64,000 nucleotides of DNA from Selaginella moellendorffii (taxonomy: Eukaryota > Plantae > Lycopodiophyta). Positions within the stretch are counted from its first letter, which is position 1. The number at the start of each line of letters is the position of its first letter. A program made the position numbers and the translations under genes. The DNA is taken from positions 2,435,181 through 2,499,180 of the forward strand of contig NW_003314265.1 in NCBI RefSeq assembly GCF_000143415.4, written 5' to 3'. This document shows, in pieces, positions 1 to 28,063 of this stretch. The notes under the pieces were generated by a model, which was given only the letters and a program-made list of their open reading frames with translations, made no database searches and was not told where the DNA came from.

Positions 1-628
1 AAACTAGCTCACAAGAAATAACCTTTTCAACCTCTGGCACTGGACTTACTTGTGTAACAACTAACACGTCCTTCACTCCATATTCCTTAGTTCTTTTCCA
101 GTGTCATGGAACAGAATGGTAGTCAAACTCTGGACGGTGAGAGCTAGGAGTGATGTTTGGCCCATCAAATATCTGTTAACGCTTCATCCGAGCTGTTCTC
201 ATGTCCCCAAGTGGTTTATAACTTGATTCATAGGAATTCTAGCAACAACTTCCTCCACCATCTTAGACATTAACCTTGTTGTTGGTGTTGTCCTTCTACC
301 AACCCGCTCTCGAAGCCTGTCTAAGTTCGGACCTGTACTAGCAAACCTTGCTTCCTATACAGCTAAAGCTTTTGATGACTGCTCAAGAGATCTAGTGAGG
401 TCGGAGAGCATAGCTTCATAAAGGAACACTTTTCCTTTCCCTGCTTCAAAAGCTCTCTGACTCCAATGTTTTCTCTCAGAGAGATTAATTGTTGGTGTAA
501 GTGCTATGTCATCAAGTGGTTGATCCTAGGAAAAATGCAACATTTGAATGTGACAAGAAAGAAAATGAGAGAAAGCTTACATAGAGAGTATAATAACCCC
601 ACTAAAACATTCAAACTTCCCACCATAT
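1..628 (-). pseudogene. MULE-like DDE transposase A, 3' part (split by the 18-kb insertion; continues off the window)
   Basis: The minus strand reads WWEV*MF*WGYYTLY, a GT-AG intron, then DQPLDDIALTPTINLSERKH...LYEAMLSDL. This aligns with the plus-strand paralog at 35420-35820 (W*EVKMFQ*GHHSLQ / PLEDLAYTPTMNLSKSKH) and joins in frame to the part at 18583. Confidence 0.75.
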
Positions 629-650
629 GCTCTATTTCGTTAAAGTGGGA
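629..650 (+). repeat. Left terminal inverted repeat GCTCTATTTCGTTAAAGTGGGA
   Basis: Exact reverse complement of 18557-18578. Confidence 0.85.
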
Positions 651-2162
651 TTTATTCAATAAAATGGGACTAGGTACAAATTTTCAAGTATTTGAAAATG
701 ACGTGAAATTATATGTTTTTTGTCCAGGGGCTAGACATATCTGGGGCATGGTGACTTTATGTCCAGATTGAGTCCATCTGGTTGTATAATAAATCTCATT
801 GTCAAGGTGAACAAGCCGAATCTGAAGCTAAAGAAGAACGATGGCATGCGCGCACACACTATTTGTTTGTTCATTGAGTGTGTGGTGAGTTTTCCAAGAT
901 GAACGTCATTCCTATTAGCCAGACATATAACTTAATGGTGAGAACATTTAGATATTATTCAATGTTATCTTTTTCTAACGAATCTAATTGTGAAGGTGTA
1001 GCAAGAGGCATTGCTAGTCTGGAGAAGTCATTTAACTCATTTGACCCTTAGTGTATTTTCATGAAACTAAATAACATTCATATTATTAAGGAATTTCTCT
1101 AGTACCTTTTTTTTACGACATAGAGGCTTGCATTTCTTTCAAAGGTGATTTAGTAAAAGGCCTGAGGGCACATGCCATTCTATTTCTCAGACCGGTATTA
1201 AGATATACTAGTGCAAAGGGAAAAAGGTATTTGGTGATCAAGTAAATGGCATGAGGGCACACGCCATTATAAGCCTAAGCGCTAGTGGACACCTCCTTTT
1301 TGGTACTCTCAGCGGTACTATCATCCTTCTCTGGGTCAGTTGTTTTGCTTTGGATTGTTGTCTCTGATGTTACTGGGGCGTTCTCGATAGTTGTTAATGT
1401 TGCCGTTTGTTCAGAAAAATGATCACCTGGAGTATAGTACGGGGAGTTTGGAAGACTTATATATTCTACATCTTCACCTATCTCCTTCTCCGTCTCCTTT
1501 TCTGCCTCACTTACAGATTTTGTGCTTGCCATGAGAACGCTCTTCACCCTAAAATATGGAGTTCGTTGTGTTATAAAAGGAAACCAACACACACGCTGCA
1601 AGGGAATGATGGTACATAAAGCACGTAAGCCCACAATATGGGTTTATGTGCCATTAATATGGGCCACACACCAGATTTATGCACGTGTGATTGGTAAATG
1701 CATATGTCACATCATCTTTGTTTTACCTCACACACTATATCAGGCCTAATGAACCATATCACATGTGCGCACATGCTATATATATGGAGAAGTATTATGC
1801 AAGGATAGAAATTCAATGCATGATTGTGGAGAGCAATGGCATGAAGCCACATGCTAAATAACATTTTAGAGAAAGAATTAAAATAAAAACATGCAAACAG
1901 TACTAAGTGGACCAAGACTTAGAAGTGCACAATTGAATGAGGTATTTCTAATAAATACTTCACTCACCTCATATAGGAATGGCTACCACTCTCAAATGGC
2001 GTATCGCCTCATGCCATCACCTCGCAATTTGTTATAACAATCCGATGAATTCATATTCGGCTTGTTCACCTTGAACTTTAAGTAAGATTTGCTAGAACAA
2101 CTAAGAATTTATACTTGTTATTTATATCATCTCACCTAGGAATGGCGTAAGGCCACATGCCA

Positions 2163-5100
2163 TCACGCCTCCTCTGATTCAGATTCGGATTGTTCACCTT
2201 GAAATAAAATACATTAGAAACTTAGTAAAGGAATATTCATGAATCTCACCTTGAACCCGGGTTATGAATGCTCTTGCTGCATCTCTTGCATGGTCTGGCA
2301 AGGTGATGGTGGCACTCTGCTTCCGCATCCAACCATGCACAACATTATCCACCGATATGCTCATGCTGGGATCCCTTGGATTCAGCACCCATCTCTTTTC
2401 TAGGCAATCGTTCGTATATCCGGAACTTGGCTTGAACCACTCCACAGTTACATTGAAGGAGTTAGTTTCCGCGTCCTCCTCTGCATCAGTGATGCAGCGC
2501 CCCACCCATATCATTTGTTTTTTATTATTGGGTCTGACAAGCATGACCATTCCTTTGCAGACCTGTACTGGATTGAATGCTGAATCTGGCTTCTTGTTCC
2601 TCGGCCCACAATAGTGATCCTCAACATCGTTATCTGTCACTGCATTTCCAGAGGACATTGTTCCGCTACTATCTGGTGCTCTGGGTTCTGGCTAAAAGGA
2701 CTCTTCCAATTCTTCATATACAACCGGCCCATTTTGGATAGCAGATATAATCTTCTCCCAGTATTCGAGCAAAGGTTTGCACCTCTGAAAATAGGATTCT
2801 CCACCAAACACCAACCCCCTCTTCCAGAAGGCAATATGCTGTCTAATCCCGGCCACTATACTTTCCTGGTCTTTGAGTCCACCGGGTGCATCGGCCGTGG
2901 GGAACCTTGAGGAATCATAGGTTCCCCAGTTATGGGATTTCTCTTGAAGAGTTCAATGCCGTCCACTGGCAGCCACACTGTGTCCCATTCTCTCATCTTG
3001 TACCTCATCACTGGAGCACCGTCACACATGCTGAAATGAAACTGAAGAGGCTTGGAGTGGCCAATCAGCGTTTCGGATCCGTCCCTGATGTAGCCTCTTA
3101 CAAACCCCTTAAAGTCTGGAACCTCTGTCAGAAGTGCAGCTTCAACAGTGCCTTTGATGGAATTTTGGAATTCATCGTAGAGTTGTGGGAGGGTGAGGAC
3201 ATTGGATCGCCGGAGGGACTCTGCCAGGTGACTGAACATGGCATCGACGTCTTCATGAGTGTGCCCAACCATGAGAAAGCCAAGTGTAACCGTTTCAAAT
3301 ATGCCTTTGGCAACAAGCATCGCCAAGTACGCAAAGACGTACATGTTTTTGTTCTCACTGCCAGCATTGTCTGTTTGGAGCAGAAGATGGGGTGGAAGGC
3401 CACATCGGCCGCAAGAACTTCCTTGAGATTCTGCTTCGTTTGGATGAGGCTGTGCATTCACCGGGCGACCAGCCTCGTCGGAATGGCATGAGGCCTCACG
3501 TGATAACCCTACAATCTGACGGCCAACATATTCACTGGGATGGCATGGGGCCCCACGCGATACTGCAAGCCTTTGCTCCTCCTCCAGCTGAACCCTGTAT
3601 GAGGTTCGATCGACAAGGGCCTTATGCAAGGGTTGGCCGTTCAGCTCAGTCTGCGCACTTTGCAGAGACCTTAAGTGTTTTGCTAGGGACGCAATCATCA
3701 TGTTTGCACCCCCGCCACCCCATAGAGGTACAAAGAAGTTCCCATAGTTCTGGGCACCATGCCCATGAGCGATTATGTCAAACAGAGACACAGGCAGCTG
3801 CATGGATGAAGAGATTGCCTTGGGGGCAGGATTGAGTCGAGGTAAGCACGTTTTTTTCTGGTCCATTTTGTCGTGGATGATGCAGAGGTAAGAGTCAAAT
3901 CTCTCCATGGAGAGAATCCTGTTATGATAATATGCAGTCCTGCAGCTTCTCTGCTCGATGTTGTGGTCGAGCCGCCTTCTAACCAACGTCTCTCGCTCTT
4001 GAGTGCTAAAAGAATTCTTTGACAAAGCCATTTTGATAGCAGTGCACTCGTCACACTTTGAAAAGCTGGAGTACTTTCCTATACTCACATCCCTGAACCT
4101 GTTTCTCCACAATCTACTAAATCTAGATTGGCTCAGCTTCCTGTAGCCATTACTCTGGAGTTCCCGATTCACATCTTCCAATATGGCCCCCTTGGTATAC
4201 ATGGAAGGGAGAACTCGTTGGGTGTCTCGTGTTCTATCTTCCAAGAGGCGGGTTTTATGTGGTTGCTGCTCGCTACATGTCTCGACAAACCTCTTGAAGA
4301 TTGCCTCTCCATATACAACATGACCCCTGGTTTTGTGCGTACTGTCGTTCCCATGGACTGCCTGTTGAAGCCTTTGTTCCTCGAACTCAGTTTTGATTCT
4401 GTAGAATGTGGTTTGAGGGACTCCATAAATGATTCTCCATGCCTTCATGCAGACCAAACCCCTCTGGAAGACCATGCCCCCCACCTGATGTTCTGAAGCA
4501 TCAATAGATGACCATAATGCCTCATACACAAAATTGCGAGCTGCCTTCCAGGACAATGTCTTGTATCTTGCTCTCTCCTCTTCAATAGCATCCCAATCAG
4601 CATGTTGACAGCACCTCCTCTTGAAACAAGCAACTGTCGAGACCATTCGAACCTCCATTGCCATTTTCTGCCTTTTTGGTTCGTTGCTCAGATCCCTTTG
4701 GCTGCGCTTTAGGAAGGTGTACTTTCTTTTCCCATGAAGAGATGTTCTGTCATCAGTTGTAGTGGTGTTTGATTGTGAATCCTTCACATTCTCAAACACT
4801 AAGTGCCTCAATTTCCACCGCACAATGCTTCCAATAGTCAGACTGTTTTCTTCTGTGTCAACAACTTCTAAAATCGCAACTCCAATATCATCCCAGCCCA
4901 ATTCTTGATTAGCAACCGCATCTCTTGGATCGACAACTGTGGCTAAGCCCTCAGCTACCACCTCCCCCTCGGGGTTGTTTAGAAACACCTTTGCCTGAAT
5001 CCATGTAGCACGGTTCTTAAGATCCACGGAGGGAACATGCGTCGCACTTGCGGCGTCCCCAACATCTGCTTTCTTCTGAAGATTTTTCAAGGCAACAACA

Positions 5101-5303
5101 ACATTTACCCCGACGACCATCTCTCCTCGTTCAATAGCGACCACATTCCCATCGAAGACAGTCTCTACTGATACAGCAGCATTGCCTTCCCCAAGCCTTT
5201 GACAGTGTATAACAAAGTTCCGATCCATAGACACAAGGGTCCCTTTTGCAACTTGCTTCCCACCATTCAAAATGTAAACCTTTTCCCCAACCCTGAAGGC
5301 CAT
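2163..5303 (-). pseudogene. Sola-like DDE/D transposase (~1000 aa; one frameshift near 2870 and a stop at 2692)
   Basis: The 815-aa ORF has KCDEC, HDKMDQKKT, QTDNAGSENKN and FLMVGHTHEDVDAMFS, an RNase H-type catalytic motif set resembling Sola transposases. It continues in a shifted frame into ORF 2194-2658, then a 52-bp intron (2198-2249) and a last exon GEQSESESEEA* ending at 2163. The N-terminus has two tandem Tnp1/En-Spm-like (VAxG...LG...V.V) domains. Confidence 0.75.
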
Positions 5304-5609
5304 TATTTTTGTGTGCGTGACTAGTCACCCATACAAAAATATATACAGTTGCAGCAAGGCAAAAGGAATATGGCAATAGGCTAGGAGGGGCCAAAGATGG
5401 CATTAGGCCTCATGCCATCTTGATATACACACAGCTGCAGGCAAGTAAAAACATACATGACAATACGCTAGCCATGAAATTGCAAGGGCCCAAGATGGCA
5501 TGTGGCCTCATGCCATTTCTAAATGTGGTCCTAAGCCATTCCATGGTGAACATACCAGGAAGCACAAGTGCCGAATATCAAGAGGAAGCGGTAGCCACAC
5601 CAAAGACAG

Positions 5610-5740
5610 TGCCGCTCGCAACACCGCAACTACTCGTAGTGCCGCTCGCAACACCGCAACTGCTCGTAGCGCCGCTCGCACAAACTGCCACTCGCATAAA
5701 CTGCCGCTCGCAATGGCGCTCGCAATGCCGCAACCGCTCG
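5610..5740. repeat. GC-rich ~30-bp tandem repeat (GCCGCTCGCAACACCGCAACT...)
   Basis: Several imperfect units are visible upstream of the transposase. Confidence 0.7.
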
Positions 5741-6534
5741 TAGACGCATAAACCACAGCCCACAACGCCGCTTACACAAGCAGCGCTCACTGCGCTCAGC
5801 GGAACCAAGAACACGGCGCACAAAAATGATAGACCTAGGAATGAGTTCAAGAATTCAAAAATAGCACACGCTTGAACGTCAAATCCTCTGACAAACCAGA
5901 TCTTATGATTCCTCTGACAAATTTCAAACTGAGTAGCTTCTAGACTTTGCTGTCGGAGGTTGAACTTTGTCACATCATGTCCTTGCCTCGATCCAGCTGT
6001 GCCATGTCAGTGATTCGAACTTTGCCATGCCATGTCAGCGATCCGCGCCAAGATTATTCGCCGTGTAAAGGAATAATTATGCTGTGTGTGTACGTCCATT
6101 TATGGCAATATAAGGCCACACGCCATTCAAAGAATAATGCTAGTCGAGCATTTTTTGGTGCATTTTTGGGTTCAAAATTGCATGAGCCCACACGCTATAA
6201 AGTTTACCTGTACCAAAAATAGAAACAGCTTTATTTACTTGGGAATTTAAGTGGTTGAGGCATTTTTAAACTTACAAACACATGCCCTACTTACATTCCT
6301 TTAGTTGCTTAAAATTCAAAAATATTATAAACCTTTCTTTTTGCATTTTCAATGTTTTCAATTATGGTTTTTGATTTTCGTAGGACCAGCCTAGTAATCT
6401 ATTTGCATCCCGTCATGTTTATAGCTAGCTTTCGTTTGTCCCCTTCGCTAGCCTGAGATACATCTGCTCGGCATCTGCCTCTTACAGCATTTGCCCAGAA
6501 AGGGCATCTTTCTTCACGCAGCATTTGCCACATG

Positions 6535-6553
6535 TTTAGGGTTTAGGGTTTAG
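6535..6553 (+). promoter_or_regulatory. Telo-box / short TTTAGGG tract in the divergent intergenic region
   Basis: TTTAGGGTTTAGGGTTTAG. Single TTTAGGGTTT motifs also occur near 7333 and 19987. Confidence 0.35.
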
Positions 6554-7769
6554 CAATTCAGTAGCTTGATAAACATGCAAATACAGAACTTGATGCAAAA
6601 TCCTTTGATATGTCACAATGCCCCTAGGACCATAAACACATTTCAATAGAGAGGGTCCTTTCATTTCATAACTCCTTACGTAGATCTTGGTGAAACTAGA
6701 GTTAGTGAAGTTAGTTTCTTGTGATCCCGCATCTGATTGTGATGTCCCTTTGCAGTTTCGATGGAAAGGTCAATGCACACCAAACTGTAAAATCTTGGAG
6801 CAAAATAACGGTCGGATCTATGGCAAATGCCCCTGAAACATTGTAAGGCTCGTGTGGTCTCATGTGGTGTCCGATCGAGATGCTTCTTTGCAGGGTCATC
6901 AAGAAAGACATTGTATACCATTCTGTAAAATCTAGTTGCGATCTAACGGTTGGATCTCCAGAAAACTCAAAAAAATCTCACGCGTGTCAGAATATCCTAG
7001 GAATATACTCCTATGTGCCCCTGAAAATGGCATGCGGCCCCACGCCATTCAAGAGATAACGCCAGATGACGCCGAGAATTTTTTGGTGCATTTTTTGGGT
7101 TCAAAATTGGATGAGCCCACACGCTATAAAGTTTATCTTTGCCAAATAGAGAAAAGTTTATCTGTGTCATGTGAGGTAGTTACAGTCCTTTGTGCTCGGC
7201 ATCTGCCTCTTGCAGCATTTGCACTGAAAGGGAATTTTTCTCCATTCAGCATTTGGCCCTGAAAATGGCATGCGCCCACACGCCATTCAAGGAATAACGC
7301 CACAGGACGCCTGGATTTTTGGGTTTAAAATGTTTAGGGTTTTTTGGGTTTTTTCAAAATATTTTGGGTCCAACGTTTTTTGGGTTTCTTTGGTTCAAAA
7401 TTGCATGAGCCCACACGCTATAATATTGATTTGAGAGAAAAATAGAAACAGATAGAATTTCTTTATTTAGCTGAACATCTGCCATTTTTGGAAATACAAG
7501 ATGCTTTGGAATATCCAATCATGCATGGTATAAATATAGCGAGGGTATTAAATGATATCCCAATCATGATCTTTCTTTTGGATTTCGCGTGCATGCAGTC
7601 CGAGGAATGATGACGTTGCGGATTTCTTTTGGATTTTGCGTGCTTGCATGCGTGCGGCAATCCAGAAATTAATGGTGGCGCCCAAGTCCAAGGAATGATG
7701 ACGTGGCGGGATTACCAACCATTGTGACATTTCGCGCGTGTGAGGTTAGGTTTTGCATTTTGCTTTGTA

Positions 7770-7945
7770 CTCGCGCTCGCGCTTGCACACTCGCGCTCGC
7801 GCTTGCATCACACTCGCGCTCCCGCTCGCATCGCGCTCCCACTCGCGATCACGCTCACTTCTCTACAGGTTTCTCGTGTGCATCGGCGTCCACTCGCGCT
7901 TGCATCACACTCGCGCTCGCATCGCGCTCGTGTGCATCAGCGTCC
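7770..7945. repeat. CG-rich low-complexity repeat (TCGCGCTCGCGCTTGCATCACAC units)
   Basis: Repeated CTCGCG / TTGCATCACAC units upstream of the cargo gene. Confidence 0.65.
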
Positions 7946-8376
7946 ACTTCATGACACACCCAGTTTGTAACTTCGCCGCCAACTCCGCCGCCCACTCCGC
8001 CACCCACACGCAGCCCACTTGGCGTCCCGGGAGATTTCAGCACTACTCTCCAACTGTAAGTGGCAGAGTAGCCTTGCTGCTACGATCCGCTGCACACACA
8101 GTGCACATCGCCAGCGAGTCCGGCCTCGATTGTCACGGCCTCCATTCGGCTTCAAATGGTAAGTCTTTTAGGCCAAGTAGAAAATGGCATGAGGCCACAT
8201 GCCATTCAGTAGCAACATTGGCATGCACCAATTGGGCTCTCGAGTGCAGTCCGGTTACAGATGGCGTGTAGCCTCACGCCATCTTAGGATGCAGCCTCAA
8301 GACATCTGATGCAGTGGTGAATGGCGTGTGGCCTCACGTTATTTCCAGCTGCTAGCTTTTCATCTGTCAGCTCTAA

Positions 8377-11300
8377 TTGTTGTGCATTTCTGAACAGGCG
8401 AGGAATTGCGTTCTTCTTCCAGCCACTGTCAATGTGGATGCAGAGAAGGGGGAGGAGCTCACCAGTTGGACTTTCGGGATGGAAGGCGAGGATCTGATGC
8501 TGTACAACACAGATGGTGGGAGAAAAGAATGCATGGGGATCCTCATCCAAGTGACAGACACTCCATGCAGTTCCATGCAAGAATATGGACTGGCACTTGT
8601 GGTAGAGACAGCGTCCGCCTTCAAGATCCACCTTGCACATCCTAGCGGCTTCCCGGAGGGGGGCAGCGGCTATGAGGAATTCCTAGAGGGAGCTAGGGAG
8701 AGGTTGTCCAGGAGGCCCACAATTTCAAAGACGCTGCGGGTTTATGAAGATCACATGGAATCCACGGACCTCACCTACGGCGATGTTCAAAAACTATATT
8801 CCAACATTGAGCCGTTGAGAGTGCCTCCAGTTTGCGAAGCGAAGGGGAAGGGGGTCGATCTGGAAACTACCCTGAAGCAGAAAAGGGTGGTCAAGCTCAA
8901 GCCGACGTCCGACTCTGCTGCTCCAAAAAAGAAGCTACTCGGTGATGCCATTGCCTCGGGTTCGAACACTACACCCACCAAAAAGAAGAGCCGCAAAGAG
9001 CAAAAAGAGCAAGAAGAGGCAGCAAAAATCGTCGCAGATAATAGTACTTGTTACTATTCCAACAAAGTATATACAATCGACGTGAGCCGTATCGAGATCC
9101 AAAGCAAATACAACCACAGGCTAGTATCTAATGAGTGGGTGGAGAAACTGAAGCAGAAGATGCTGGCAAGTCCAGTAACACCCGACATCGCAGACGTGAT
9201 CCCCTACTACTGAACAATGAAGGGCGAGACAAGGTTTCCAGACTTGATCAATAGGAAGGTGTTGGACGATCAGAACATCCGGTTCTATGCCGTCTCCGGG
9301 CAGCATTCTAGCTTGGCGATGCAACAGATAGTTGTGGATATTATGGTGGGCGAGGAGGTGAAGAAAGTCTTCAAGACAAGAGTTGTCCGCCTGATAAAAG
9401 GCAACTCGCCCCTCCGATCTATCATATACATCTCCCACGCGCAGAATGTCAAGCAAGAAACGTGCTACAAATCGGGTCTGCACGAGACATTGGCACGAAC
9501 ACGGAAGCTCTGGGTTCAACTGAAGAAGCCACAAAAACCAGGACAAGGATGTGCACTAGCAACTAGCGCCTGGCAGGTAAGCCTCGTTGCATGTGGCATA
9601 GCATGTGGCCTCACGCCATTTCCATTGCAGGAATTCTCGAGTCTTCTCTCGAAAACACTGGGGGTCAATGACACACTCAGCATCCATAACATTCTACTCG
9701 CGACAAAAGTTGTTTTTGACAAATGGGTAGATGTGCTGAGGAGGTACCATGACGGGGAGTTGCTAAACTCAATGGGTGTGGAGGACGGCCGGAAGCCCAA
9801 TGATTTGAATCTCAATGCCTTGCGTTTCTCGCGGTCTCTAGACGACGACGACCTTCTGACAGTGGCTAATGCTCTTCTACGTGGTGAGGTAGTCTTCAAC
9901 AAGACCAAAATGACTCCCGGCCATATTGTGACATACAAGGACTTGTGCACGACTCTGAGAGCTCGTGCGCTATTGAAGGATTGGATCTTCTAGCAAGTGG
10001 CCGTGGCGAGGGTGAGCATCGACACCACGCAAGAGATGATGGAAGAGCTGGAGTTGTCAAATGAAGACATCGACGAGTACGTGAAGGGGGCCCCCAAGTT
10101 CATCGATCTGCTGCGGGATGCCACGAAAAGTAAAGCTGAGAAGTTGGATCAGTATCCAAATTTCATTAAGAGGGATGTCGACCGCCGGCTTCAGAAACAG
10201 CTCGACCCCGCAACAGAGGCCTATCGAGAACCTTACCGGGTATACGTGAATTCAGATGAGGATCAAAGGTGGAGGAGCATCGTTTCCCGCGGAGATGAGC
10301 AGGTCAAGAACATCTTTTGTGTGATGGACTTCACAAACGAGGAGATCACTCATGCAGATGAAGTCAGCTCCATCATTGACTTAATGGTGGGACTTGCGGA
10401 GGTGGAATCTTCAGTCCACTATATGATCTACGACTCCGAATCCTATCACAAGTTCTGGAAGGCCTTGAACGAGGTGAAGGCTCGGTTGAAAGGCAAGGAG
10501 ATGCGGGAGATCCATGGGATAATGGCTAAGAAGAAGATACCGACGAATGTCCGCATCTTCACACTCGCCCTTGTTATTGGTCCTACAGCAGAGTGGGATT
10601 GGAGTGACTTCCCAGCTTCGTTCGACAAGGCCGATCGAATTGATCTGAGGGAGATCAATTTACCCGTGCCTGAGGAACTGAAGACGGCTATGGAGCTTTC
10701 GAATCCAAAGAAAGCTCCAGGTGCAGCATGGGAAATGCTCAGCTGGGTCTTCAACGCAATAGCAGGTGACTCCAAGGGCAAATGCGTTGTCGAGTACAAC
10801 TGCGGCGGACTATTCTTTCGAGCTGCACTACTCAAGGGTGTCCCGTGTGTTGCGGTGACAAACTCCATTGAAGAGGTGACTTCAATGGAGCATATAATTA
10901 CAGTTGCCAAAGAAAAACAGTATCTTCTCTACGAACCTGGTGAGTACGCACTTTAAGTTTAAATGTTATCTCACAAGCTCTGTATGCAGGAGCGTGGCCA
11001 CCCCCAGATGCTGAAACGGCGTTAACAGCTACTGATGTTAGGCCGAGCTCACAACCTGCACAAGGTAAGGTCACGTGAGGCCTCACGCCATTTTGATTAT
11101 AGATCGTTGTGAATATTCAGACACGAGGACTGAAAAGCGCACTGGTGGCGCGTCGAAGAAGGACAAACAGACAAGCAATAGGAAAAAAGGAGGTACAAAT
11201 TATATTTGCAATGGCGTGTGGTCTCATGCCATTCCTTGCAGGAGACACTTCTTCAAAGGCAAAACAGGCAAGCACCAGCCAAGCTCAAACTGACAGTGGT

Positions 11301-14300
11301 CGGGGCGAACAGCTTCTTCACGTACGAGATCAAGGATGCGCGGAACGGTTTGATGGTGAACAGGGAATTTGAGAGAGAAGAAATCCCACGACTGTGGCAA
11401 AAGTGGATCACGCTAGGAGTGGAGGTGGACCAGGTGATTGACAATACCGTGGCGTTCTGGAAATTACCGATCCAGGAAAAATCAAAGGTAACCTCTTGGC
11501 TCGTGGCGACGAATGGGCTGCCAGTAGGCCAGCAATTTCAAGCGGAGAATGCTCGCAGGTGTCCGGAATGCGGGGAACTGGAGACGGTCACACACCTCCT
11601 CTGGGATTGTGACGTGGCCAAGGAGACGTGGCGGCAGGTAGCAAAAGCAACGAGGGAACTAGGGGACAAGCAGGATTTTGAAATTCGAGAAGGGGATGTC
11701 ACCCAATGGTTTCCAAAGGCAAGGGGACCATGCACAGGAGCAGCTTGGCGGAAGATCGGGTGTTGGGGACGCTCAGGATGGGGCACCCGAGTTAGGTGGG
11801 ACGCGGTAGGCGCTGAAGTTGGGACTACAGTGTGGGAGGCCCTTGGACGGGCGAGATGGGAGGTATGGCGGGCTTCCGGGGTACAGGCACTCTGGGAGGC
11901 TCGGAACTGCAACCAATTCGAAGGGCAGTGCACTCGGATTTCAGCGATCATGGCGAATTGGTGGAGGCTCACACTGGCTGCTATCCGCTTGAGGGATACG
12001 CTGCTCCAGGAGCATGGGAAAAACAGGGAGGCACTCACAGCTTGGCGACGATTATGGACTCCGTGCTACGGAACTGAACACGAGGGGGAGGTCAAGTGGA
12101 AATGGAGACCTTTGGACACAGTAACAAAGGAGGCTTGACGTGGCGATCTGGCACTAGATGCACTGCGGAGGCGACGACCACAGCAGCCACGATTGGAGGG
12201 CAGCGATCACTATTAGGTGGAGAATTGCAGGACAGCGTAGTTGAGTGAACAACGCTAAGGGATTCTTGTTTTTTGTATCAGTCCCTAAGGGACTTGGAGA
12301 AATGTACATACACGTTGCATCAAACTGACAGTGGTCATAAAAAGCGAAAGCACGTTGGACAGTCGTCGGGATCAGAGGCGTTTGATTCGAAAAGGAAGAA
12401 GGGCAACAAAAAGATGATAGGTAATGCCTCGCGGTTATGGCGTGTGTGCTCATGCCATTCATTGCAGATCAAGGGCTGAGTGAAAGGAGCCAGTCACCAC
12501 CTTCTGACTCAGATTCCTATGGCGGACTCCCCTTCCCCAATCTCAATGGAGAGGTACAATGGATGAGGGATGCTTTTCAAGTCAGGGCCACGTTTTTCTC
12601 ATCTCGTCATCTTCGAAGGCTGCAAGAACGTGCAGAAACCATGTTAAGACAGTCGGGTGAGGATACGGTCCTAGGTCACGCACTAAAACAGGCTATGGAT
12701 GTCTTGTATTTTGAGATGGAGACTCGGCCAGATGATTTTCCCAAGATGGTCCTGGAAAAACAAGCCATCCAGCCTGAGCAGCCTATGGAAGAAATGCAGG
12801 AGGGGGATGAGGAGCCAGAGAAAGATAATGAGCAGGAAGAGCAGAAGGACGAAGAGGAGGACAAAGAAGAGGAGGACGAAGAAGAGGAAGATGAAGAAGA
12901 GGAGGACGAAGAGGACTTGGATGGTCCTCACAATGGTGACGATCACAATAACGACGATGACGATGATGATGACGATGGCCAGCCTGAGGTGGCCAAAGAG
13001 CAGCGGAGGAAGGTCATACAAGACAAACCATTAAGTAAATAATAGTACATCCATTCCTAACCTTTTACCATTTCTAACATTGTCCATGTAGGTCGCAGAA
13101 GAAATGGTAAGTAGAGATTATTCAGTTGAATTAAGATACAAACTCTAGCCTTTAGTGTCGAGGAAGGATAGTGCCAAGCAAAGGTCGAAACATATGTCCA
13201 ATCCTTCAGAATCAGCAGTGCGCCCAAGTGATATCGGTCCTAGTTCCTCAATAGCAGTTGATGGTAAATACAGTATAGTCGATTCAATGTGCTAATGAGT
13301 TTGTTTTTAGTAGCCAGTAGGGAGGATACCATCTCAATCGAAGGGAGATATTTGGACATGCATATGGATCCGCCAGTGGACTCTACTTGCCTGCAAGAGT
13401 CATCAGAGCTGGTGGAGGCTACTATCCATATCAACACCAAGCAAGCTGACCACGCTCCACTTGATGCTGCCCATACCACTGAGTCAATCTTGTCCACGTA
13501 TCCAACTGACGGTGACCAGGCGCCATTGGACCCGCATGAGGCCGCCCCAGCCGCCGAGCCGGTCGTATCCTCATTTCCAACGTGTGCCCAATCGTCTGAC
13601 TACGCGCCATTGGAACCTCCCTACACCGCCCCTGCTGCCTGTTCGGTCATGTCCACTTTGCCAACGGAGGCATCAGCTGAAATGGCGTGTGATCACATGC
13701 CATCGGAACCACCCCATGCCACTGTTGAGCCAGTTGTACCAGAGTCTACAGCTGAAATGGCATGTGCCCACACGCCATCGGATGCGATTGACCCCACATT
13801 GCAGAGGAGAGTATTTCCGCCCTTCACGTTTCCTCGACCAAAACCCTCTCAACGACCATCGGGAGCACCATTCGCTAATATTGTAGATGGTAAAATTGAC
13901 TTGTACCATTTTTTATGTTGACGCATTTCATTTCAGAGTCACGGCGAAAGTACTGTATCGTTTTTGATCTGAACGGTGTCCTTTTCTCCCATGAGCGTGG
14001 CTCGTCCTCGAATGTCACTGCACCCTCCAAAGCCTGCGGTCGCAAGTTGGTCAAAAGAGACAGATTCACATTAATCACACGGGAAAAACTGCGGGATCTA
14101 ATAATGACCATGCGACACTTAAAACAGAGGGCCGGGTTCAATTTGCAATTGGGAGTTTGGACATCCATGATGCGCCACAATGCATTAACGTTGCTACAGA
14201 TGATGCACGATCAGACGCGAGTAATATTACCATTTGACTTTCTCCTAACACAGGAGGATTGCTTGACTATGGTCCATGTGAGGGGTAGCAAGCCCATCTT

Positions 14301-14469
14301 CGTCAAGCCAGAGGCTGTAGTGATGAACCGGACTGCTAGGTCAAGTGAAATCCTCATCATCGATGACTCGCCGATTAAAACTGCAGCGAACACGCACACA
14401 TATGCAGTGCACCCCATCTCTTGCAGTTTGGAAACTAGGGAGAAGAAACCGTATGTTCTGGGGGACCTT
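8377..14469 (+). pseudogene. Multi-exon cargo gene: ParB/Srx-like domain + degenerate amino-MTase-like fold + acidic/Pro-rich linker + FCP1/NIF phosphatase
   Basis: ORFs 8377-9213, 9217-9993 and 9997-10956 share one frame, split by TGA and TAG (likely CGA/CAG to T). ParB-like: IDVSRIEIQSKYNHRLVSNEWVEKLKQKML...FYAVSGQHSSLAMQQI. MTase-like C-terminal part: NPKKAP...DSKGKCVVEYNCGGLFFRAALLKGVPCVAV. Short introns include 9577-9630 and 13890-13936; the latter splices in frame into the NIF domain. The true start codon is uncertain. Confidence 0.6.
11302..12319 (+). mobile_element. 5'-truncated L1-like LINE fragment (zf-RVT C-terminus)
   Basis: It encodes RRCPECGELETVTHLLWDC and is flanked by a 16-17-bp TSD TCAAACTGACAGTGGTC (11285-11301, 12320-12336). 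The empty site is present in the duplicated copy near 15737. Confidence 0.85.
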
Positions 14470-14472
14470 CTG

Positions 14473-17400
14473 GAGCATCAACACCACGCAAGAGATGATG
14501 GAAGAGCTGGAGTTGTCAAATGAAGACATCGACGACTACGTGAAGGGGGCCCCCAAGTTCATCGATCTGCTGTGGGATGCCACGAAAAGTAAAGCTGAGA
14601 AGTTGGATCAGTATCCAAATTTCATTAAGAGGGATGTCGACCGCCGGCTTCAGAAACAGCTCGACCCCGCAACAGAGGCCTATCGAGAACCTTACCGGGT
14701 ATACGTGAATTCAGATGAGGATCAAAGGTGGAGGAGCATCGTTTCCCGCGGAGATGAGCAGGTCAAGAACATCTTTTGTGTGATGGACTTCACAAACGAG
14801 GAGATCACTCATGCAGATGAAGTCAGCTCCATCATTGACTTAATGGTGGGACTTGCGGAGGTGGAATCTTCAGTCCACTATATGATCTACGACTCCGAAT
14901 CCTATCACAAGTTCTGGAAGGCCTTGAACGAGGTGAAAAAGGCAAGGAGATGCAGGAGATCCATGGGATAATGGCTAAGAAGAAGATACCGACGAATGTC
15001 CGCATCTTCACACTCGCCCTTGTTATTGGTCCTGCAGCAGAGTGGGACTGGAGTGACTTCCCAGCTTCGTTCGACAAGGCCGATCGAATTGATCTGAGGG
15101 AGGTCAAATTACCCGTGCTTGAGGAACTGAAGACGGCTATGGAGCTTTCGAATCCAGAGAAAGCTCCAGGTGCAGCATGGGAAATGCTCAGCTGGGTCTT
15201 CAATGCAATAGCACCTGCTTCCGACTCCAAGGGCAAATGCGTTGTCGAGTACAACTGCGGCGGACTATTCTTTCGAGCCGCACTACTCAAGGGTGTCCCG
15301 TGTGTTGCGGTGACAAACTCTATTGAAGAGGTGACTTCAATGAAGCATATAATTACAGTTGCCAAAGAAAAACAGTATCTTCTCTGCGAACCTGGTGAGT
15401 ACGCACTTTAAGTTTAAATGTTATCTCACAAGCTCTGTATGCAGGAGCGTGGCCACCCCCAGATGCTGAAACGGCGTTAACAGCTACTGTTGGGCCGAGC
15501 TCACAACCTACACAAGGTAAGGTCATGTGAGGCCTCACGCCATTTTGATTATAGATCGTTGTGAATATTCAGACACGAGGACTGAAAAGCGCACTGGTGG
15601 CGCGTCGAAGAAGGACAAACAGACAAGCAATAGGAAAAAAAGAGGTACAAATTATATTTGCAATGGCGTGTGGTCTCATGCCATTCCTTGCAGGAGACAC
15701 TTCTTCAAAGGCAAATCAAGCAAGCACCAGCCAAGCTCAAACTGACAGTGGTCATAAAAAGCGAAAGCACATTGGACAGTCGTCGGGATCAAAGGCGTTT
15801 GATTCGAAAAGGAAGAAGGGCAATGAAAAGATGATAGGTAATGCCTCGCGGTCACCACCTCCTGACTCAGATTCCTATGGCGGACTCCCCTTCCCCAATC
15901 TCAATGGAGAGGTACAATGGATGAAGGATGCTTTTCAAGTCAGGGCCACGTTTTTCTCATCTCGTCGTCTTCGAAGGCTGCAAGAACGTGCAGAAACCAT
16001 GTTAAGACAGTCGGGTGAGGATACGGTCCTAGGTCACGCACTAAAACAGGCTATGGATGTCTTGTATTTTGAGATGGAGACTTGGCCAGATGATTTTCCC
16101 AAGATGGTCCTGGAAAAACAAGCCATCCAGCCTGAGCAGCCTATGGAAGAAATGCAGGAGGGGGATGAGGAGTCAGAGAAAGATAATGAGCAGGAAGAGC
16201 AAAAGGACAAAGAGGAGGACAAAGAAGAGGAGGACGAAGAAGAGGAGGACAAAGAGGACTTGGATGGTCCTCACAATGGTGACGATCACAATAACAACGA
16301 CGACGATGATGACGACGATGGCCAGCCTGAGGTGGCCAAAGAGCAGTGGAGGAAGGTCATACAAGACAAACCATCAGGTAAATAATAGTACATTCATTCC
16401 TAACCTTTTACCATTTCTAACATTGTCCATGTAGGTTGCAAAGCAAATGGTAAGTAGAGATTATTCAATTGAATTAAGATACAAACTCTAGCCTTTAGTG
16501 TCGAGGAAGGATAGTGCCAAGCAAGGGTCGAAACGTATGTCCAATCCTTCAGAATCAGCAGTGCGCCCAAGTGATATCGGTCCTAGTTCCTCAATAGCAG
16601 TTGATGGTAAATACAGTATAGTCGATTCAATGTGCTAATGAGTTTGTTTTTAGTAGCCAGTAGGGAGGATACCATCTCAATCGAAGGGAGATATTTGGAC
16701 ATGCATATGGATCCACCAGTGGACTCTACTTGCCTGCAAGAGTCATCAGAGCTGGTGGAGGCTACTATCCATATCAACGCCAAGCAAGCTGACCACGCTC
16801 CACTTGATGCTGCCCATACCACTGAGTCAATCTTGTCCACGTATCCAACTGACGGTGACCAGGCGCCATTGGACCCGCATGAGGCCGCCCCAGCCGCCGA
16901 GCCGGTCATATCCTCATTTCCAACGGACTCAACGTGTGCCCAATCGTCTGACTACGCGCCGTTGGAACCTCCCTACACCGCCCCTGCTGCCTGTTCGGTC
17001 ATGTCCACTTTGCCAACGGAGGCACCAGCTGAAATGGCGTGTGATCACACGCCATCGGAACCACCCCATGCCACTGTTGAGCCAGTTGTACCAGAGTCTA
17101 CAGCTGAAATGGCATGTGCCCACACGCCATCGGATGCGATTGACCCCACATTGCAGAGGAGAGTATTTCCGCCCTTCACGTTTCCTCGACCAAAACCCTC
17201 TCAACGACCATCGGGAGCACCATTCGCTAATATTGTAGATGGTAAAATTGACTTGTACCATTTTTTATGTTGACGCATTTCATTTCAGAGTCATGGCGAA
17301 AGTACTGTATCATTTTTGATCTGAACGGTGTCCTTTTCTCCCATGAGCGTGGCTCGTCCTCGAATGTCACTGCACCCTCCAAAGCCTGCGGTCGCAAGTT

Positions 17401-17821
17401 GGTCAAAAGAGACAGATTCACATTAATCACATGGGAGAAACTGCGGGATCTAATAATGACCATGTGACACTTAAAACAGAGGGCCGGGTTCAATTTGCAA
17501 TTGGGAGTTTGGACATCCATGATGCGCCACAATGCATTAACGTTGCTACAGATGATGCACGATCAAACGCGAGTAATATTACCATTTGACTTTCTCCTAA
17601 CGCAGGAGGATTGCTTGACTATGGTCCATGTGAGGGGTAGCAAGCCCATCTTCGTCAAGCCAGAGGCTGTAGTGATGAACCGGACTGCTAGGTCAAGTGA
17701 AATCCTCATCATCGATGACTCGCCAATTAAAACTGCAGCAAACACGCACACATATGCAGTGCGCCCCATCTCTTGCAGTATGGAAACTAGGGAGAAGAAA
17801 CCGTATGTTCTGGGGGACCTT
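14473..17821 (+). repeat. Tandem segmental duplication of 10014-14469 (cargo gene 3' half)
   Basis: Near-identical copy beginning GAGCATC(A/G)ACACCACGCAAGAG and ending GGGGACCTT, with a 3-bp filler CTG at the junction. It lacks the LINE and carries small indels. Confidence 0.95.
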
Positions 17822-18151
17822 GCAAAACGGCTTGGAGCGATGGTGATAGAGAACTGGCCAGTCCAGAAGGTGGCTGCAGAAATCAACCAAATGGCAGATG
17901 GAACGGTATATCAGAAGCCATTTGATCGGACAGACATCAGTCATCATTTATGGCATGTATATTGTCTAGCCAAGCACTATCCGCATCTCCATAATTTGCT
18001 CAACCGGATGGGTTCTTCGACCACTGAACATGAGCGTGGACGTATTAGAGAAGAGATGGCATTACTATTGGGTTTAAATCCTGATAGTGTGGAGAGTGAT
18101 GAAATTCCAAGATTATTGTATAGGCGTTGGAGGCAAAAAATAATAGTCTGA
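17289..18151 (+). pseudogene. FCP1/NIF (CTD-phosphatase-like HAD) terminal exon, full-length copy with an internal stop
   Basis: Motifs YCIIFDLNGVL, LGVWTSMMRHNA, FLLTQEDC, KPIFVK and ILIIDDSPIK. There is a TGA at 17465. The copy at 13937-14469 is stop-free but truncated. Confidence 0.75.
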
Positions 18152-18556
18152 GATGGCATGTATTTATTTAAAAATGTAACTTATTATGGCATGGGGTTCC
18201 ATGCCATTGTATTAATATTAAAAGACAATTCTTTGAGAGGATTTGCATTTACAGCATGTTATTGGAAGTCTACGAAGTTGTTTTATTAATAAGGGGAAAG
18301 TAAAGATTGAATGGGGACTTGGGCTCCACCTAGACTCGGAGCAACTGAGCCAATATTAAAAGGATGGAAAGAAATTGGACGACGATGACAAGGAGAAGAG
18401 AGAGGTGAAGCAGTGGCAGGGGGAGGAGAAGTGATTGAGTAGACATTTCCTTGTTTAAAATAAAATGGCATGTGCCTCAATGCAGTTGAATTTTGTTATA
18501 TTTATATACTATATAAAGGTTTGGAAACCTTATTTTACAAGTGGGATAATGACAAT

Positions 18557-18578
18557 TCCCACTTTAACGAAATAGAGC
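18557..18578 (-). repeat. Right terminal inverted repeat
   Basis: TCCCACTTTAACGAAATAGAGC, the reverse complement of 629-650. Confidence 0.85.
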
Positions 18579-18582
18579 TTCT

Positions 18583-19730
18583 ATACAAGCCAATATTCTA
18601 TTTGTGGAAGGTTTTCAATTGACACTTTGTCTCCTTCACGCCACCATATGCACATCTCATTTGCCTTTGTATTATGCTCCTCTTTAGTTGATGCATCCAT
18701 CCATTCCTGACAAAGCTGCTTGAACTCGTGATGGAAGTCAGATTTGATGCATCGGCAATGTTCGTTAACACTCTTTGCCCAATGAAATTTACAACTCTTC
18801 TCTCTACCTTGTAACGGCTAACTTTTATCACCTCCAAATACTTGTCGTACAGCCAATCAGATAGCACTAGCAGCATTTGCCATGAAACCACAGAAGTTGG
18901 GTTTCTTCCCGGTTCACTGTTTAACAACTTCAGATATACATGTCTAAAAGACAGTTTGTGCTTGAAAATCTTGAACCTTGAATTTGGCTATAGCTATAGT
19001 CAAGTTGCACTGCACCTATAGAAGGAATGGTTATAATGTAAATCGGTATGAAATCCTTAAAAAATGAATAATTACTTACTTGTGATCATAAACATGATCT
19101 CCCATAATTGACCAGCATGAAATTCGTTCCATGTGGTCAAAATGGATCCAGGAATTAACCAAGTCCCCATCTCCATCCATATCCATTCATTGTACAAAGT
19201 CCACACCAAAAGCAGGACCAAGGGTAGACATTTTAAAGATGAAATGGTGTTGATTATTCACTTGGCTAACTAGTCATTTGGCTAACGAACAAGCTCCTAT
19301 AAACTCATAGGGACATTTTCTTTTTAGCTCCAAAATCCCATTCAATCTAGATTGAGGCTTTCTATCTTGCCCTTCTTGCATCCAATTCTTTATTCTACTA
19401 AAAAAAAGAGTATTATTAGTGATAAAGTAGAGTTAAGTATTAATTTTATACCTATTTAAATTTGTCATGGGTTCTATATTTCGAAGTAGGTCCTTCAAGC
19501 TATTCTCCGTGAACTCTTTTTTGCTATTAAATTGTAGCAACATGTCAACCACATAATCCTTTAGTATAGACTGTTGAACACACTTTAGAGTTGCAGCACT
19601 TTTCTTCCCAACTTCTGTAGTAACAGCAGCCTTCAAATTGCGAAAAGAATCACGGTGGATTCCTTCCTCTTCGTGCGTGGTTTTTTCGCGCGCCAACCAA
19701 CTTTTTCGAGTTTGACTCTCTCTCACTTGT
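18583..19730 (-). pseudogene. MULE-like DDE transposase A, 5' part
   Basis: The minus strand reads FIFKMSTLGP...WIHFDHMER...HVYD, NFCGFMANAA...GREKSCKFHWAKS (CxxH motif of MULE transposases) ...MCIWW...IEYWL. It has multiple stops and short introns. Confidence 0.75.
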
Positions 19731-20627: not shown

Positions 20628-21674
20628 TTCTAGTGACTTGTTGTCGCGAATGTGACTTCGGGTATTGAAAGTTATCTGTCAGCTAGTCCTTACAGACACT
20701 CTTACCTTACTGCCACGATGGCAGGAGGTCGGTATTGTTGGACCCGTTATCAGTTTCCCACTTGAGCTAATTGAGAAACTGGTCAATGACCATGCACTTA
20801 GATTGGATAAATATAAGGTAGGAACCCTATGTGTTTCTTGCTAAGCATACTCGGCCTGGTTTGAGAAACTTGAGTCATTGGCTTGCACTTGCTAGTAACA
20901 AGAACCCCCGCGATATTGAGATTAGTCCCTCAATATTCGCTAGATGATAGCTTACCGTGTCTGCCAAACACCCTCGCTATCATGCCCTTTGTGTTAGTCT
21001 CATTTCGGTCCCAAATGCTAATTATGGAAAGTGTTTGGATTTGCTCATTTGCCATATCTATGGAACGTAAAGATCGGCCTGAACACAATAGTGTTCGTCC
21101 CATGTCCAAATTCGCAATCTAACGCCATTCCATATTTAGTAAATTTTGAGCTTGTCCCAAAGACTAACTCCTGATACTAAGGGAAGTTTGGGGTGAAAGC
21201 CCAAAGTGTGTGTTCCTCAAAGGGGGGGTGGCTATGGGGGGTTCCAAATGTATAGTAGGGATAGTGGGTAGGTTGGGTATGGCTGACCAACCTGAGGCAT
21301 AGTCTAGCTTCTGCTTGCGTGCCTGTCCTTGTTCTGCGTCTGGCTTGGGTCTAAGCCCAAGTTCCATTCCATGCTAGTTGGTGGAGTACCCATGTCCTCG
21401 CGTTAGGCCACCGGTATGCCAAAATAGCACCAGACTCTATTTGGCTTCGTTTTGCGTGCTGTGTGAGACACAAAATCCCTAGGCCCCAAAGTGGAGCTGG
21501 AAGGGCACCATGTGGTAGTGGCCAAAGCAAAAGCCAAACAAGTGTAACACATTTGGACTAAAAGCTCCATCTTGAAAGGTCGAGAGCGGGAGTGGAACTC
21601 CCAACAAAGTGCTCGAGGAATGAGTACGAAGCGAGCAATAAGCGAGGCTCTAAAAAAGGACCCAAAAGGACCAA

Positions 21675-22165
21675 GATGGAGTCCGAGATGGAGTCTGAGA
21701 TGGAGTCCGAGATGGACCAAGACGAAGTCCGAGATGGAGTCCGAGACAGAGTTCGAGATGGACTGAGACGGAGTCCGAGATGGATCCGAGATGGAGTCCG
21801 AGATGGAGTCTGAGATGGAGTCCGAGATGGAGTCCGAGATGGAGTCCGAGATGGAGTCCGAGATGGAGTCTAAGATGGAGTCCGAGATGGACCCGAGATG
21901 GAGTCTGAGATGGAGTCTAAGATGGACCAAGACGGAGTCCAAGATGGAGTCCGAGATGGATCCGAGATGGAATCCGAGATGGAGTCCAAGAAGGACCCGA
22001 GATGGAGTCCAAGGTCAAGACTGAGACCGGGACCGAGACCGAGACCGAGACCAAGACTGAGACCGAGACCAAGACTGAGACCTAGATCGGGACCGGGACC
22101 GAGACCGAGCCCGAGTCCAAGCCCGAGTCCGAGTCCGAGTCCGAGTCCGAGTCCGAGTTCGAGTC
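21675..22165 (+). repeat. LTR-internal minisatellite (GATGGAGTCCGA)n then (GACCGA)n/(GTCCGA)n
   Basis: Directly visible. The same arrays, with different lengths, occur at ~27425-28175, ~30405-30860 and ~54590-54955. Confidence 0.95.
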
Positions 22166-23168
22166 TAAGAGGGTGAAAGCCCAAAGCATTCGTCTCCCAG
22201 ACCTTGGGGGGTTTGGTGAGCTCCAAAAGTATAGTAAAGGGGAGGACTGTAGTGGAGCTAGTTTGGCCAGGAAAGGCCAGTTTGGCCCAAGAAGGCTGTA
22301 CCCAGTGTTGGGTGATGAGCTGCCCATTGGGAAGTCCAAGACTAAAGTGAACACGGACCGACAAGCGGGGTAACTTGGTGAAGTGTTCAAGAGCCGGCTC
22401 TAGTTCCCCCGGGAGATCGACTGGCCGATACTCCCAATCCAAGTGTGGGTGGCACTACCTACTTGGATATCAGGCGTGGCTCAACGGAACCTCGCTCTAA
22501 GCCCATGGCTAGAGCACCCAAAGGCGGAAGGCGGGGAGAGTACCCACAAGGCTTGCGTAAGGCCATGGTGTTCCGAAATGTTGTCCTAAAGGCCTAGACT
22601 GTGGAAAGGAAGAGGAGTAGGCCTCGGGTGTAGTGACCAAGGATACAGTCATGCAGTGAGGAAGTCCTAGAGGACTGTGGGACTTAGTGGTCGGGCTTGT
22701 GGGCCTTGATCCAGTGGCAGTGTTGGCGAATACGGCCAAGGGCAAAAAGGGACTCAGTGGGGACCAGAAAGGAGATATTGGGGAAGGCTATTCCTCATGT
22801 TTGCGGGCATCCTAAGGATGCTAAGGAGTGGATCTGGGATGACCACTCATGGATGGATGGCCCAGTCTTGGAGAGACGGGATTGCAATGAAGGTGGTGTT
22901 GGACCACTGATGTGACCAAGGTGATTGGGCATGGCCTAGCGTAACAGGCTGGTATGTTGGTGGTGCCTTGGGGTGTCGGTCATGGAACCGGACACGTGGA
23001 GCACTTATACCAAGTGCAAAGGTTGAGTGGCATGGATGCCATTCTCGGGGCTAGCAAACCCCAAGTCCTGAGTGGGACTTATGGAGGTTGTGAATGAAAC
23101 TCCTCCAAGTGGTTGGAGGTGCGGTTAAGTGACTAAAGTAGAATGGAAAAATTTAGTCTCTTACAATT

Positions 23169-23180
23169 TGGTATCAGAGT
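23169..23180 (+). other. Primer-binding site (tRNA-iMet type)
   Basis: TGGTATCAGAGT, 3 bp after the LTR end. Confidence 0.85.

Positions 23181-28032: not shown

Positions 28033-28063
<31 letters not shown>

Follow-up and report, generated by a model that had tools for sequence, protein, structure and literature searches.

The window analysed here, a repeat-rich stretch of 64,000 nucleotides of Selaginella moellendorffii DNA (RefSeq assembly GCF_000143415.4, contig NW_003314265.1, positions 2,435,181 to 2,499,180 of the forward strand, numbered below from 1), opens with an 18-kb Sola-like DNA transposon that belongs to a multi-copy family. The element carries a transposase gene on the minus strand and, divergent from it, a second gene on the plus strand, termed here the accessory gene, whose product is predicted to contain a ParB/Srx-like fold. 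Moreover, copies of a 22-bp palindrome (hereafter, the dyad) are dispersed along the element, mostly in its non-coding DNA, and these copies are considered below as candidate sites of a DNA-binding protein, for which the accessory protein is the favoured candidate.

The Element and Its Transposase

In three public DNA-type runs, contig depth over the element stands about 8- to 28-fold above that of the flanks, a ratio that is not equivalent to copy number, and contigs break off at 627 and 18580. Taking these two positions as the ends, the candidate target-site duplication (TSD) CCAT/CTAT matches at three of four bases, with one transition; no unoccupied target site was seen, and the duplication is not of the AWWT type described as the target preference of insect Sola1 elements in the relevant passages of PMC3845634. 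In the same passages, the terminal inverted repeats (TIRs) of insect Sola1 share the core AAAGTGG with the TIR found here, and passages of PMC10741241 give a 4-bp TSD together with a DDD transposase as features of Sola. From its DDD transposase, its TIRs and the core of these repeats, the element appears Sola-like.

The transposase belongs to DUF7869, a family that we take to be linked with the Sola superfamily. The acidic motifs HDKMD, TDNA and HTHEDVD, presumably those that hold the catalytic aspartates, are conserved in an alignment of 24 transposase sequences. The last intron of the gene is predicted to be 52 nt long (2198–2249), and no relatives of the transposase were found in viral contigs. 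Directly upstream of its ATG lies a 38-bp imperfect palindrome (5304–5341), separate from the dyad, and some contigs of one of the runs (X1) go from 5304 into different sequence that ends like a minus-strand intron acceptor. A 122-codon acidic, Ser/Thr-rich frame without Pfam match (1275–1643, minus strand) is a possible exon of a third gene.

The copy of the element present in the window is broken and dead. Its accessory frame contains two nonsense codons (9211 and 9991), the transposase is frameshifted near 2881, where other copies carry one more base, a fragment of a non-long-terminal-repeat retrotransposon (LINE) that shows low depth in other copies has been inserted, and a long stretch has been duplicated internally (Table 1). 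Most of the changes that separate it from other copies are A>G and T>C, i.e., they reflect C>T and G>A decay in the copy described here.

A Continuous 22-bp Dyad Confined to the Element

A first-pass annotation of this DNA had described at least 25 palindromes with a near-invariant 6-bp spacer of variable sequence and had seen none outside the TIRs of the element. A search for ATGGCRTG-N6-CAYGCCAT with at most two mismatches finds 26 sites (14 of them exact) in the first 19.5 kb and none beyond, whereas 200 dinucleotide shuffles of the element contain, at the same threshold, a mean of 0.035 sites and a maximum of one; other arm spacings, from 0 to 12, yield at most three sites each. With a matrix built from the sites themselves, which renders the count inside the element circular, 32 sites reach at least 10 bits, the first at 841 and the last at 18465–18486, and none does so in the other ~45 kb of the window, where the two best scores are 8.3 and 8.6 bits. 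The number of palindromes, the length of their spacer and their absence outside the element were thus correctly recognized. Four of the 32 sites belong to the 97%-identical internal duplication (14473–17821), which leaves 28 independent positions.

The one part of that description that does not stand is the variable sequence of the spacer. Position 10 is G in 25 of the 28 sites, position 13 is C in 26, and the central hexamer reads exactly WGSSCW in 16, so that the dyad continues through its centre and the consensus becomes one continuous 22-bp sequence, ATGGCRTGWGS/SCWCAYGCCAT (the slash marking the centre). A freely variable spacer is ruled out by these counts. Within the element, all 50 of the 11-base half-sites found at up to one mismatch are paired in a full dyad, and five half-sites occur alone outside it.

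The dyads are spread through the element and lie, for the most part, outside its coding DNA. More than 1 kb separates 23 of the 28 sites from either end, and more than 2 kb separates 19 of them; 24 are non-coding (p = 1e-5, on our own gene model), the four coding sites being located in a variable loop of the transposase (two) and in a low-complexity stretch (two). Neither the TIRs nor the LINE insert (11302–12336) contains a dyad. The largest group of 11 sites is found between the divergent genes or in a predicted 5' intron. Four further sites occupy introns of the accessory gene that are 38–54 nt long, among which that at 9577–9630 has support from homologues in spliced form, in which precisely those 18 residues are missing, the other three being predicted only. 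In run X20, conjectured to be of RNA, one contig continues into an intron. The dyad at 2142 abuts the predicted stop of the transposase.

Several observations concern the surroundings of the sites. The predicted last exon of the transposase and its adjoining dyad have been copied locally (800–863, 1995–2075 and 2141–2204), once inverted near the left end, which is one route by which sites multiply. Gaps between neighbouring sites seem to cluster, measuring 57–98 bp in 10 of 31 cases and 135–160 bp in six. Telomere-type TTTAGGG words are found at 6530–6555 and 7320–7345, between the divergent genes. At the start of a predicted intron, 40 bases (8053–8092) draw very deep contigs from other sequence in the three runs; the loose ends of these contigs are taken by us to resemble the 3' end of large-subunit ribosomal RNA, which Rfam did not confirm.

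Table 1. Features of the Sola-like element and of the dyads that it contains (positions in the window).
Feature	Position	Strand	Basis and remarks
Sola-like DNA transposon, multi-copy family	627–18580	.	Contig depth, contig ends, TIRs
Left TIR	627–653	+	24 of 25 bases identical between 629–653 and 18554–18578; no dyad
Right TIR	18554–18580	-	
Possible 4-bp TSD, left copy CCAT	623–626	+	Right copy CTAT at 18581–18584; inferred from ends
DDD transposase gene (DUF7869)	2163–5303	-	Pfam PF25273, E 1.7e-40; 50 homologues; alignment
ParB/Srx-fold domain (AVSGQHS at 9289)	9040–9465	+	Structure model; nonsense codon 9211
Conserved helical domain where ParB has its DNA-reading domain	9466–10224	+	Selaginella and Riccia homologues; nonsense codon 9991
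Beta-class N4/N6 DNA methyltransferase fold, degenerate motifs	10225–10941	+	DFTN at ~10327; YNCGG at ~10795
NIF/FCP1-like HAD phosphatase domain	13937–18151	+	Pfam PF03031, E 2.3e-6
5'-truncated LINE fragment, zf-RVT	11302–12336	+	17-bp TSD; no dyad
Internal duplication of 10014–14469 minus LINE	14473–17821	+	97% identical; carries four duplicate dyads: 15522, 15663, 17034, 17109
7 dyads: 841, 1157, 1246, 1758, 1836, 1996, 2142	841–2163		Non-coding, downstream of transposase
2 dyads: 3483, 3540	3483–3561		Within transposase frame, loop variable among homologues
11 dyads: 5397, 5495, 6105, 6177, 7027, 7106, 7265, 7400, 8184, 8261, 8321	5397–8342		
4 dyads: 9598, 11070, 11211, 12437	9598–12458		Each within a predicted short intron (GT-AG) of the accessory gene (9577–9630, 11065–11102, 11193–11241 and 12421–12467, respectively)
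2 dyads: 13682, 13757	13682–13778		Low-complexity, probably coding stretch
2 dyads: 18186, 18465	18186–18486		Close to right end

The Dyad as a Probable Site in DNA

The two arms of the dyad vary independently. At the purine/pyrimidine (R/Y) positions, the 26 sites comprise seven A-T and three G-C combinations, which pair, together with 11 A.C and five G.T combinations, which do not, and covariation between the arms is absent (Fisher p = 0.40), in line with the variation without compensation that the first-pass annotation had noted. At the positions that hold A or T in both arms (W/W), six of 22 combinations pair and 16 mispair (p = 0.05 against one half). Such independence is expected if one subunit of a protein reads each half. 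A folding advantage of the sense strand at the sites is not significant (more stable at 11 of 15 untied sites, Wilcoxon p = 0.28).

The sites do not resemble inserted units either. No TSD was found around the 22-mer, since 20 of the 28 sites have no flanking repeat and the longest such repeat is 3 bp, and no site-sized indel is present among the differences listed between this copy and others. Flanks of 30 bases are at least 60% shared in five of 378 pairs of sites, and most sites are thus not relics of one tandem array.

Constraint on individual bases can be recognized in the decay of CpG. In half-sites scored with positions 5 and 6 unspecified, CA occurs 28 times, CG 21 times, TG once and other dinucleotides twice. 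Decay of CpG should yield CA and TG equally, so that the ratio of 28 to 1 (p = 1e-7) indicates that C5 is constrained and that position 6 takes either purine. In the region 5300–8400, none of the 36 listed differences from other copies falls at the R/Y positions of the 11 sites located there, and in the two differences that do fall within sites (5404 and 7110) this copy has left the consensus, which other copies keep.

The fixed geometry, the missing covariation, the lack of orphan half-sites within the element, the absence of a significant folding advantage and the absence of a TSD make a site for a dimeric DNA-binding protein, rather than an RNA hairpin or a miniature inverted-repeat transposable element, the best reading of the dyad from its sequence, and the constraint on the centre strengthens this reading. 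The first-pass annotation had reached the same inference, and the TSD-flanked insertion polymorphism of single copies that it had named as contrary evidence was looked for and not seen, either in the flanking repeats or among the listed differences. Its further suggestion that the sites are maintained was put too strongly; it agrees with the CA:TG asymmetry and with the pairing of all half-sites, and draws no support from the variation among current copies, to which we return below.

The Accessory Protein as Candidate Binder

With X written for its two stops, the accessory frame (9040–10953) was compared with 1.8 billion representatives, and 17 relatives reached E 0.001; 15 of them were aligned, two repetitive ones being left out, and the nearest named ones are from S. 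moellendorffii and Riccia sorocarpa. The structure model of the protein has a mean predicted local distance difference test score (pLDDT) of 65, with low confidence in parts of the methyltransferase region. Residues 3–142 are modelled as a ParB/Srx fold, matching PadC (6ryk; Z 9.5, root-mean-square deviation (rmsd) 3.3, 99 residues aligned), and the top Foldseek rows are Noc/ParB proteins at E 0.003 and weaker, as well as the same beta-class methylases that are described below. Up to residue ~306, the whole model can be aligned with KorB 52–250 (Z 9.0, rmsd 10.4) and pNOB8 ParB (Z 8.5, rmsd 5.9).

Residues ~396–634 are predicted to form a methyltransferase fold that matches CcrM (6pbd; Z 8.1, rmsd 4.8, 198 aligned) and, further, EcoP15I Mod (Z 7.7), MboIIA (Z 7.3) and PvuII (Z 6.7). 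In beta-class methyltransferases, the catalytic motif IV is D/S/N-P-P-Y/F. Its place in the accessory protein, located by position and not by residue-level superposition, is the end of the predicted strand 424–430 and reads DFTN, with DLRR in the Selaginella homologue and DLTS in that of Riccia. The domain is thus probably inactive and, because motif IV reads DFTN, the accessory protein would not methylate DNA.

No ParA ATPase is encoded among the 11 long frames scanned, a profile search of PDB sequences returned nothing meaningful, and a word-seeded homologue search using the alignment gave no match; in the ESM Atlas, the best matches are fungal DUF3723-type clusters (0.93–0.94, with a low recognition score), which are a lead only. 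The phosphatase domain is present twice, the first copy (13937–14459) being interrupted and the second continuing to a stop at 18151. It could not be joined to the ParB-methylase frame, as exon joining after 10940 hit stops in both duplicate copies.

Dyads in Related Transposase Loci

The relatives considered here are 80 metagenome loci that encode related transposases, 77 of which (at least 2 kb long) were scanned de novo for dyads. The dyad of the window itself is found in the 80 loci as two matches with four mismatches only. A repeated dyad of their own reaches log10 p ≤ -10 in 14 of the 77, some of these loci being redundant and two of the dyads lying far from the transposase; the best values in controls are -5.7 in 20 shuffled loci and -7.7 in five stretches of the window without large arrays. 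In the clear cases the words are distinct, e.g., an 18-mer present 10 times upstream of the transposase in L001 and a 24-mer present four times in L002, with 10, eight and 12 dyads in L017, L046 and L056, respectively, and almost never are they common to two loci. Dyads specific to single families are thus a general feature of this transposase group.

A tblastn search for the accessory or phosphatase gene found none in the 80 loci at E 0.001. A profile search matched a decayed accessory gene in L039 (E 2e-9), which lies between clusters of a 14-bp dyad. Among side observations, the dyads of relatives show periods near 47, 75 and 140 bp and, at position 5418 of the window, contigs of runs X1 and X4 pass from the dyad at 5397–5418 into another short palindrome that resembles the 14-bp dyad of the L039 type.

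What May Bind the Dyads

The first-pass annotation had proposed no particular binding protein. That some protein binds the dyads is highly probable on the sequence evidence given above and, should this be the case, it is somewhat more likely than not that the accessory protein is the one. A dimer of this protein, with its predicted ParB/Srx fold and its probably inactive amino-methyltransferase fold, encoded by the element itself, would bind the dyads, and the protein would coat and regulate the copies of its own family. As VANC or TnpA do (see below), it would activate these copies or prevent their silencing, most likely as a counter to silencing by the host. Speculatively, binding could be insensitive to methylation of the CpG at position 6, since the site takes C or T opposite that position. 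The complete proposal, in which the accessory protein binds the dyads and acts as a regulator with a probably anti-silencing outcome, falls just short of an even prospect.

A number of observations weigh against this proposal. The resemblance to ParB and to methyltransferases is structural and of moderate strength (Z 8–9.5), with no Foldseek row at E 0.001, and Pfam finds no ParB or methylase family in the accessory protein or in 15 homologues. Where ParB has GxxRxxA, which we take to be its CTP (cytidine triphosphate)-binding motif, the proteins of the window and of the homologues read SGQHS/DGQHT, without the arginines. For the helical domain, an alignment with KorB and pNOB8 ParB is obtained only when the complete model is compared, and the corresponding domain of the Selaginella homologue, folded alone (pLDDT 83.7), has no match at Z ≥ 5 and no Foldseek match. 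An accessory gene was found in one of 80 loci while many have dyads, a scarcity that is weak evidence since the related loci are mostly represented by short or decayed contigs. In L034/L035, the 133-bp terminal inverted repeat of a 2.8-kb contig contains the dyads. As far as their sequences tell, the related loci do not tie the dyads to the accessory gene, and the transposase stays in play. In the de novo scan, tandem arrays of the window itself score up to -54, which indicates that tandem repeats can mimic a dyad signal. Furthermore, variation among current copies is not lower within sites (two variable places against 2.7 expected, in a test that lacks power as the family is too young), and the observed/expected ratio of non-coding CpG amounts to 0.61 up to 100 bp from a site and to 0.89–1.01 at 100–500 bp, i.e., CpG protection near sites is not seen in this dead copy, which has mostly decayed by C>T and G>A changes.

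The most improbable of the alternatives is that the palindromes are RNA hairpins in transcripts of the element, with roles in splicing or stability or as a source of small RNA. Three intronic sites do stop short of the acceptor AG by 8 to 11 bases and the sense strand tends to be the more stable one, but this strand bias is not significant, mispairs prevail at both R/Y (16 of 26) and W/W positions (16 of 22), the dyadic centre provides no proper loop, nine sites belong to intergenic DNA or to a promoter region, and Rfam gives no match. Hardly more probable are sites for a recruited host factor, e.g., a TCP, B3 or bZIP protein. Some dyad centres read AGCCCA or GGCCCCAC, resembling what we take to be site II or TCP words, and telomere-type repeats share an intergenic region with dyads; however, the other ~45 kb of the window contain no copy, the dyads of relatives are unrelated, and 22 constrained bases are presumably more than such host sites have. 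Improbable, although a little less so, is the view that the sites are by-products, namely tiny insertions of an 18-bp unit with AT duplication or the result of functionless repeated local copying. AT is present on both sides of the inner 18-mer in 22 of 28 sites, local duplication made some of them (6177/7106/7400, 7027/7265 and 841/2142) and, as stated above, current copies vary no less inside sites than outside. However, the dyad itself imposes AT at either side, site-sized indels are missing among the listed differences, and neutral debris would not be expected to stay within one element, to spare coding DNA and the LINE, or to show one-sided CpG decay.

The transposase, or a product derived from it, is a more serious competitor, yet unlikely as well; it would bind the dyads through a second DNA-binding module, either for synapsis or as a self-activating transcription factor. 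It has extra domains and, by eye, stretches that resemble helix-turn-helix motifs, its match to TNP1/EN/SPM is weak and misses the cut-off (E 0.025), and transposases can be sequence-specific activators according to passages of bioRxiv 10.64898/2026.08.24.746577, where, however, the examples of AtMu1 and TnpA bind termini. In relatives, the transposase is mostly flanked by the dyads, the inverted repeat of L034/L035 contains them, and no accessory gene was found in 79 of the 80 loci, although short contigs may break before such a gene. In the window, by contrast, the TIR has no dyad, for 19 of the 28 sites the nearer end is over 2 kb away, and four lie within introns of the accessory gene. The argument of the first-pass annotation, that the spread over the whole element speaks against end-binding by the transposase, is weaker than it was put: this element has 23 of 28 sites more than 1 kb from the ends and a dyad-free TIR, but in some compact relatives the dyads adjoin or sit inside the ends.

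Elsewhere in the Window

Another repeat family is present in several copies and both orientations (21460–31060, 52770–55190 and 59300–60540), and contains long tandem arrays, with units of 12 bp and 6 bp, which are in turn quasi-palindromic. At 43978–44292, a 24-bp tandem array encodes a proline-rich, extensin-like repeat and ends at an assembly gap (44293–45149).

Known Systems and Significance

The accessory protein and the dyads resemble, as we understand their biology, the ParB-parS, Noc-NBS and KorB systems of bacteria in the predicted N-terminal ParB/Srx fold and in the many palindromic sites without a free spacer. They differ from ParB-parS in the length of the site (22 bp against about 16 bp), the lack of a ParA gene and of GxxRxxA, and the fused methyltransferase fold. 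Fusions of ParB, helix-turn-helix and methylase domains are described from chlorophytes and chytrids in passages of PMC4738411.

A close counterpart is Sola1-1_Ec32 of the brown alga Ectocarpus, which has a divergent gene for a ParB-like and N4/N6 methyltransferase protein; according to the passages on this element in PMC12477816, the protein is proposed to bind the element that encodes it and to modify it. The two elements share their giant size, a Sola or Sola-like character and a divergent gene of the (predicted) ParB-methylase kind; the TSD is of 4 bp there and a possible 4-bp one, matching at three of four bases, is seen here, with termini AA...TT there and AT...TT here. One resides in a brown alga and the other in a land plant; the present element, moreover, has a degenerate catalytic motif, a phosphatase-like domain and a defined candidate target site, the dispersed 22-bp dyad, whereas those passages describe no such site. 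In the Plavaka elements PAG2 and PAG3 of Bostrychia, a ParB-like gene stands beside tandem inverted repeats that are proposed as its sites (bioRxiv 10.1101/2025.02.11.637652, passages on these elements), an arrangement that shares with the present one a transposon-borne accessory ParB-like protein and inverted repeats as proposed sites. According to the same passages, however, these are EnSpm/Plavaka elements in which ParB is fused to a 2-oxoglutarate (2OG) oxygenase, the methylase is a separate gene, and the arrays are tandem and beside the gene, not dispersed.

Regulation of a family by its own protein has precedents in plants. VANC motifs on the VANDAL elements of Arabidopsis pile up in introns and in intergenic and terminal non-coding DNA (passages of PMC5735166), and this system likewise combines an accessory protein encoded by the element with short, family-specific motifs in non-coding DNA. 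It differs in that VANDAL is a Mutator element, the protein is unrelated, its 8–9 bp motifs are asymmetric and located in tandem repeats, and demethylation is experimentally shown there. TnpA of Spm and the AtMu1 transposase activate cognate copies through recognition of family-specific motifs (bioRxiv 10.64898/2026.08.24.746577, passages on both) and differ in that they bind termini and in that the motif is not a long dyad.

Thus, both a ParB-methylase gene on a Sola element and the association of ParB with inverted repeats are already published as hypotheses. No land-plant Sola element with a ParB-methylase gene or a defined dyad was found in the literature covered, subscription journals being mostly outside this coverage. 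What distinguishes the present case is that the candidate site is long, precise and, within the window, confined to the element, the algal proposals having no defined site in the passages concerned. A wider scenario, doubtful at present, would be that early-diverging land plants harbour Sola transposons with a private parS-like system, in which a ParB-fold protein loads at family-specific dyads of 14–24 bp and, in the form of a clamp, spreads over the 18 kb of the element, a dead methyltransferase fold (with the phosphatase domain) reads or shields methylated DNA and keeps the family active, and protein and dyad change together between families. If the accessory protein does bind the dyads, plants would hold a second self-recognition system, of bacterial derivation, and the families of such elements may provide a series, occurring in nature, of programmable specificities for DNA sites of 20 bp.

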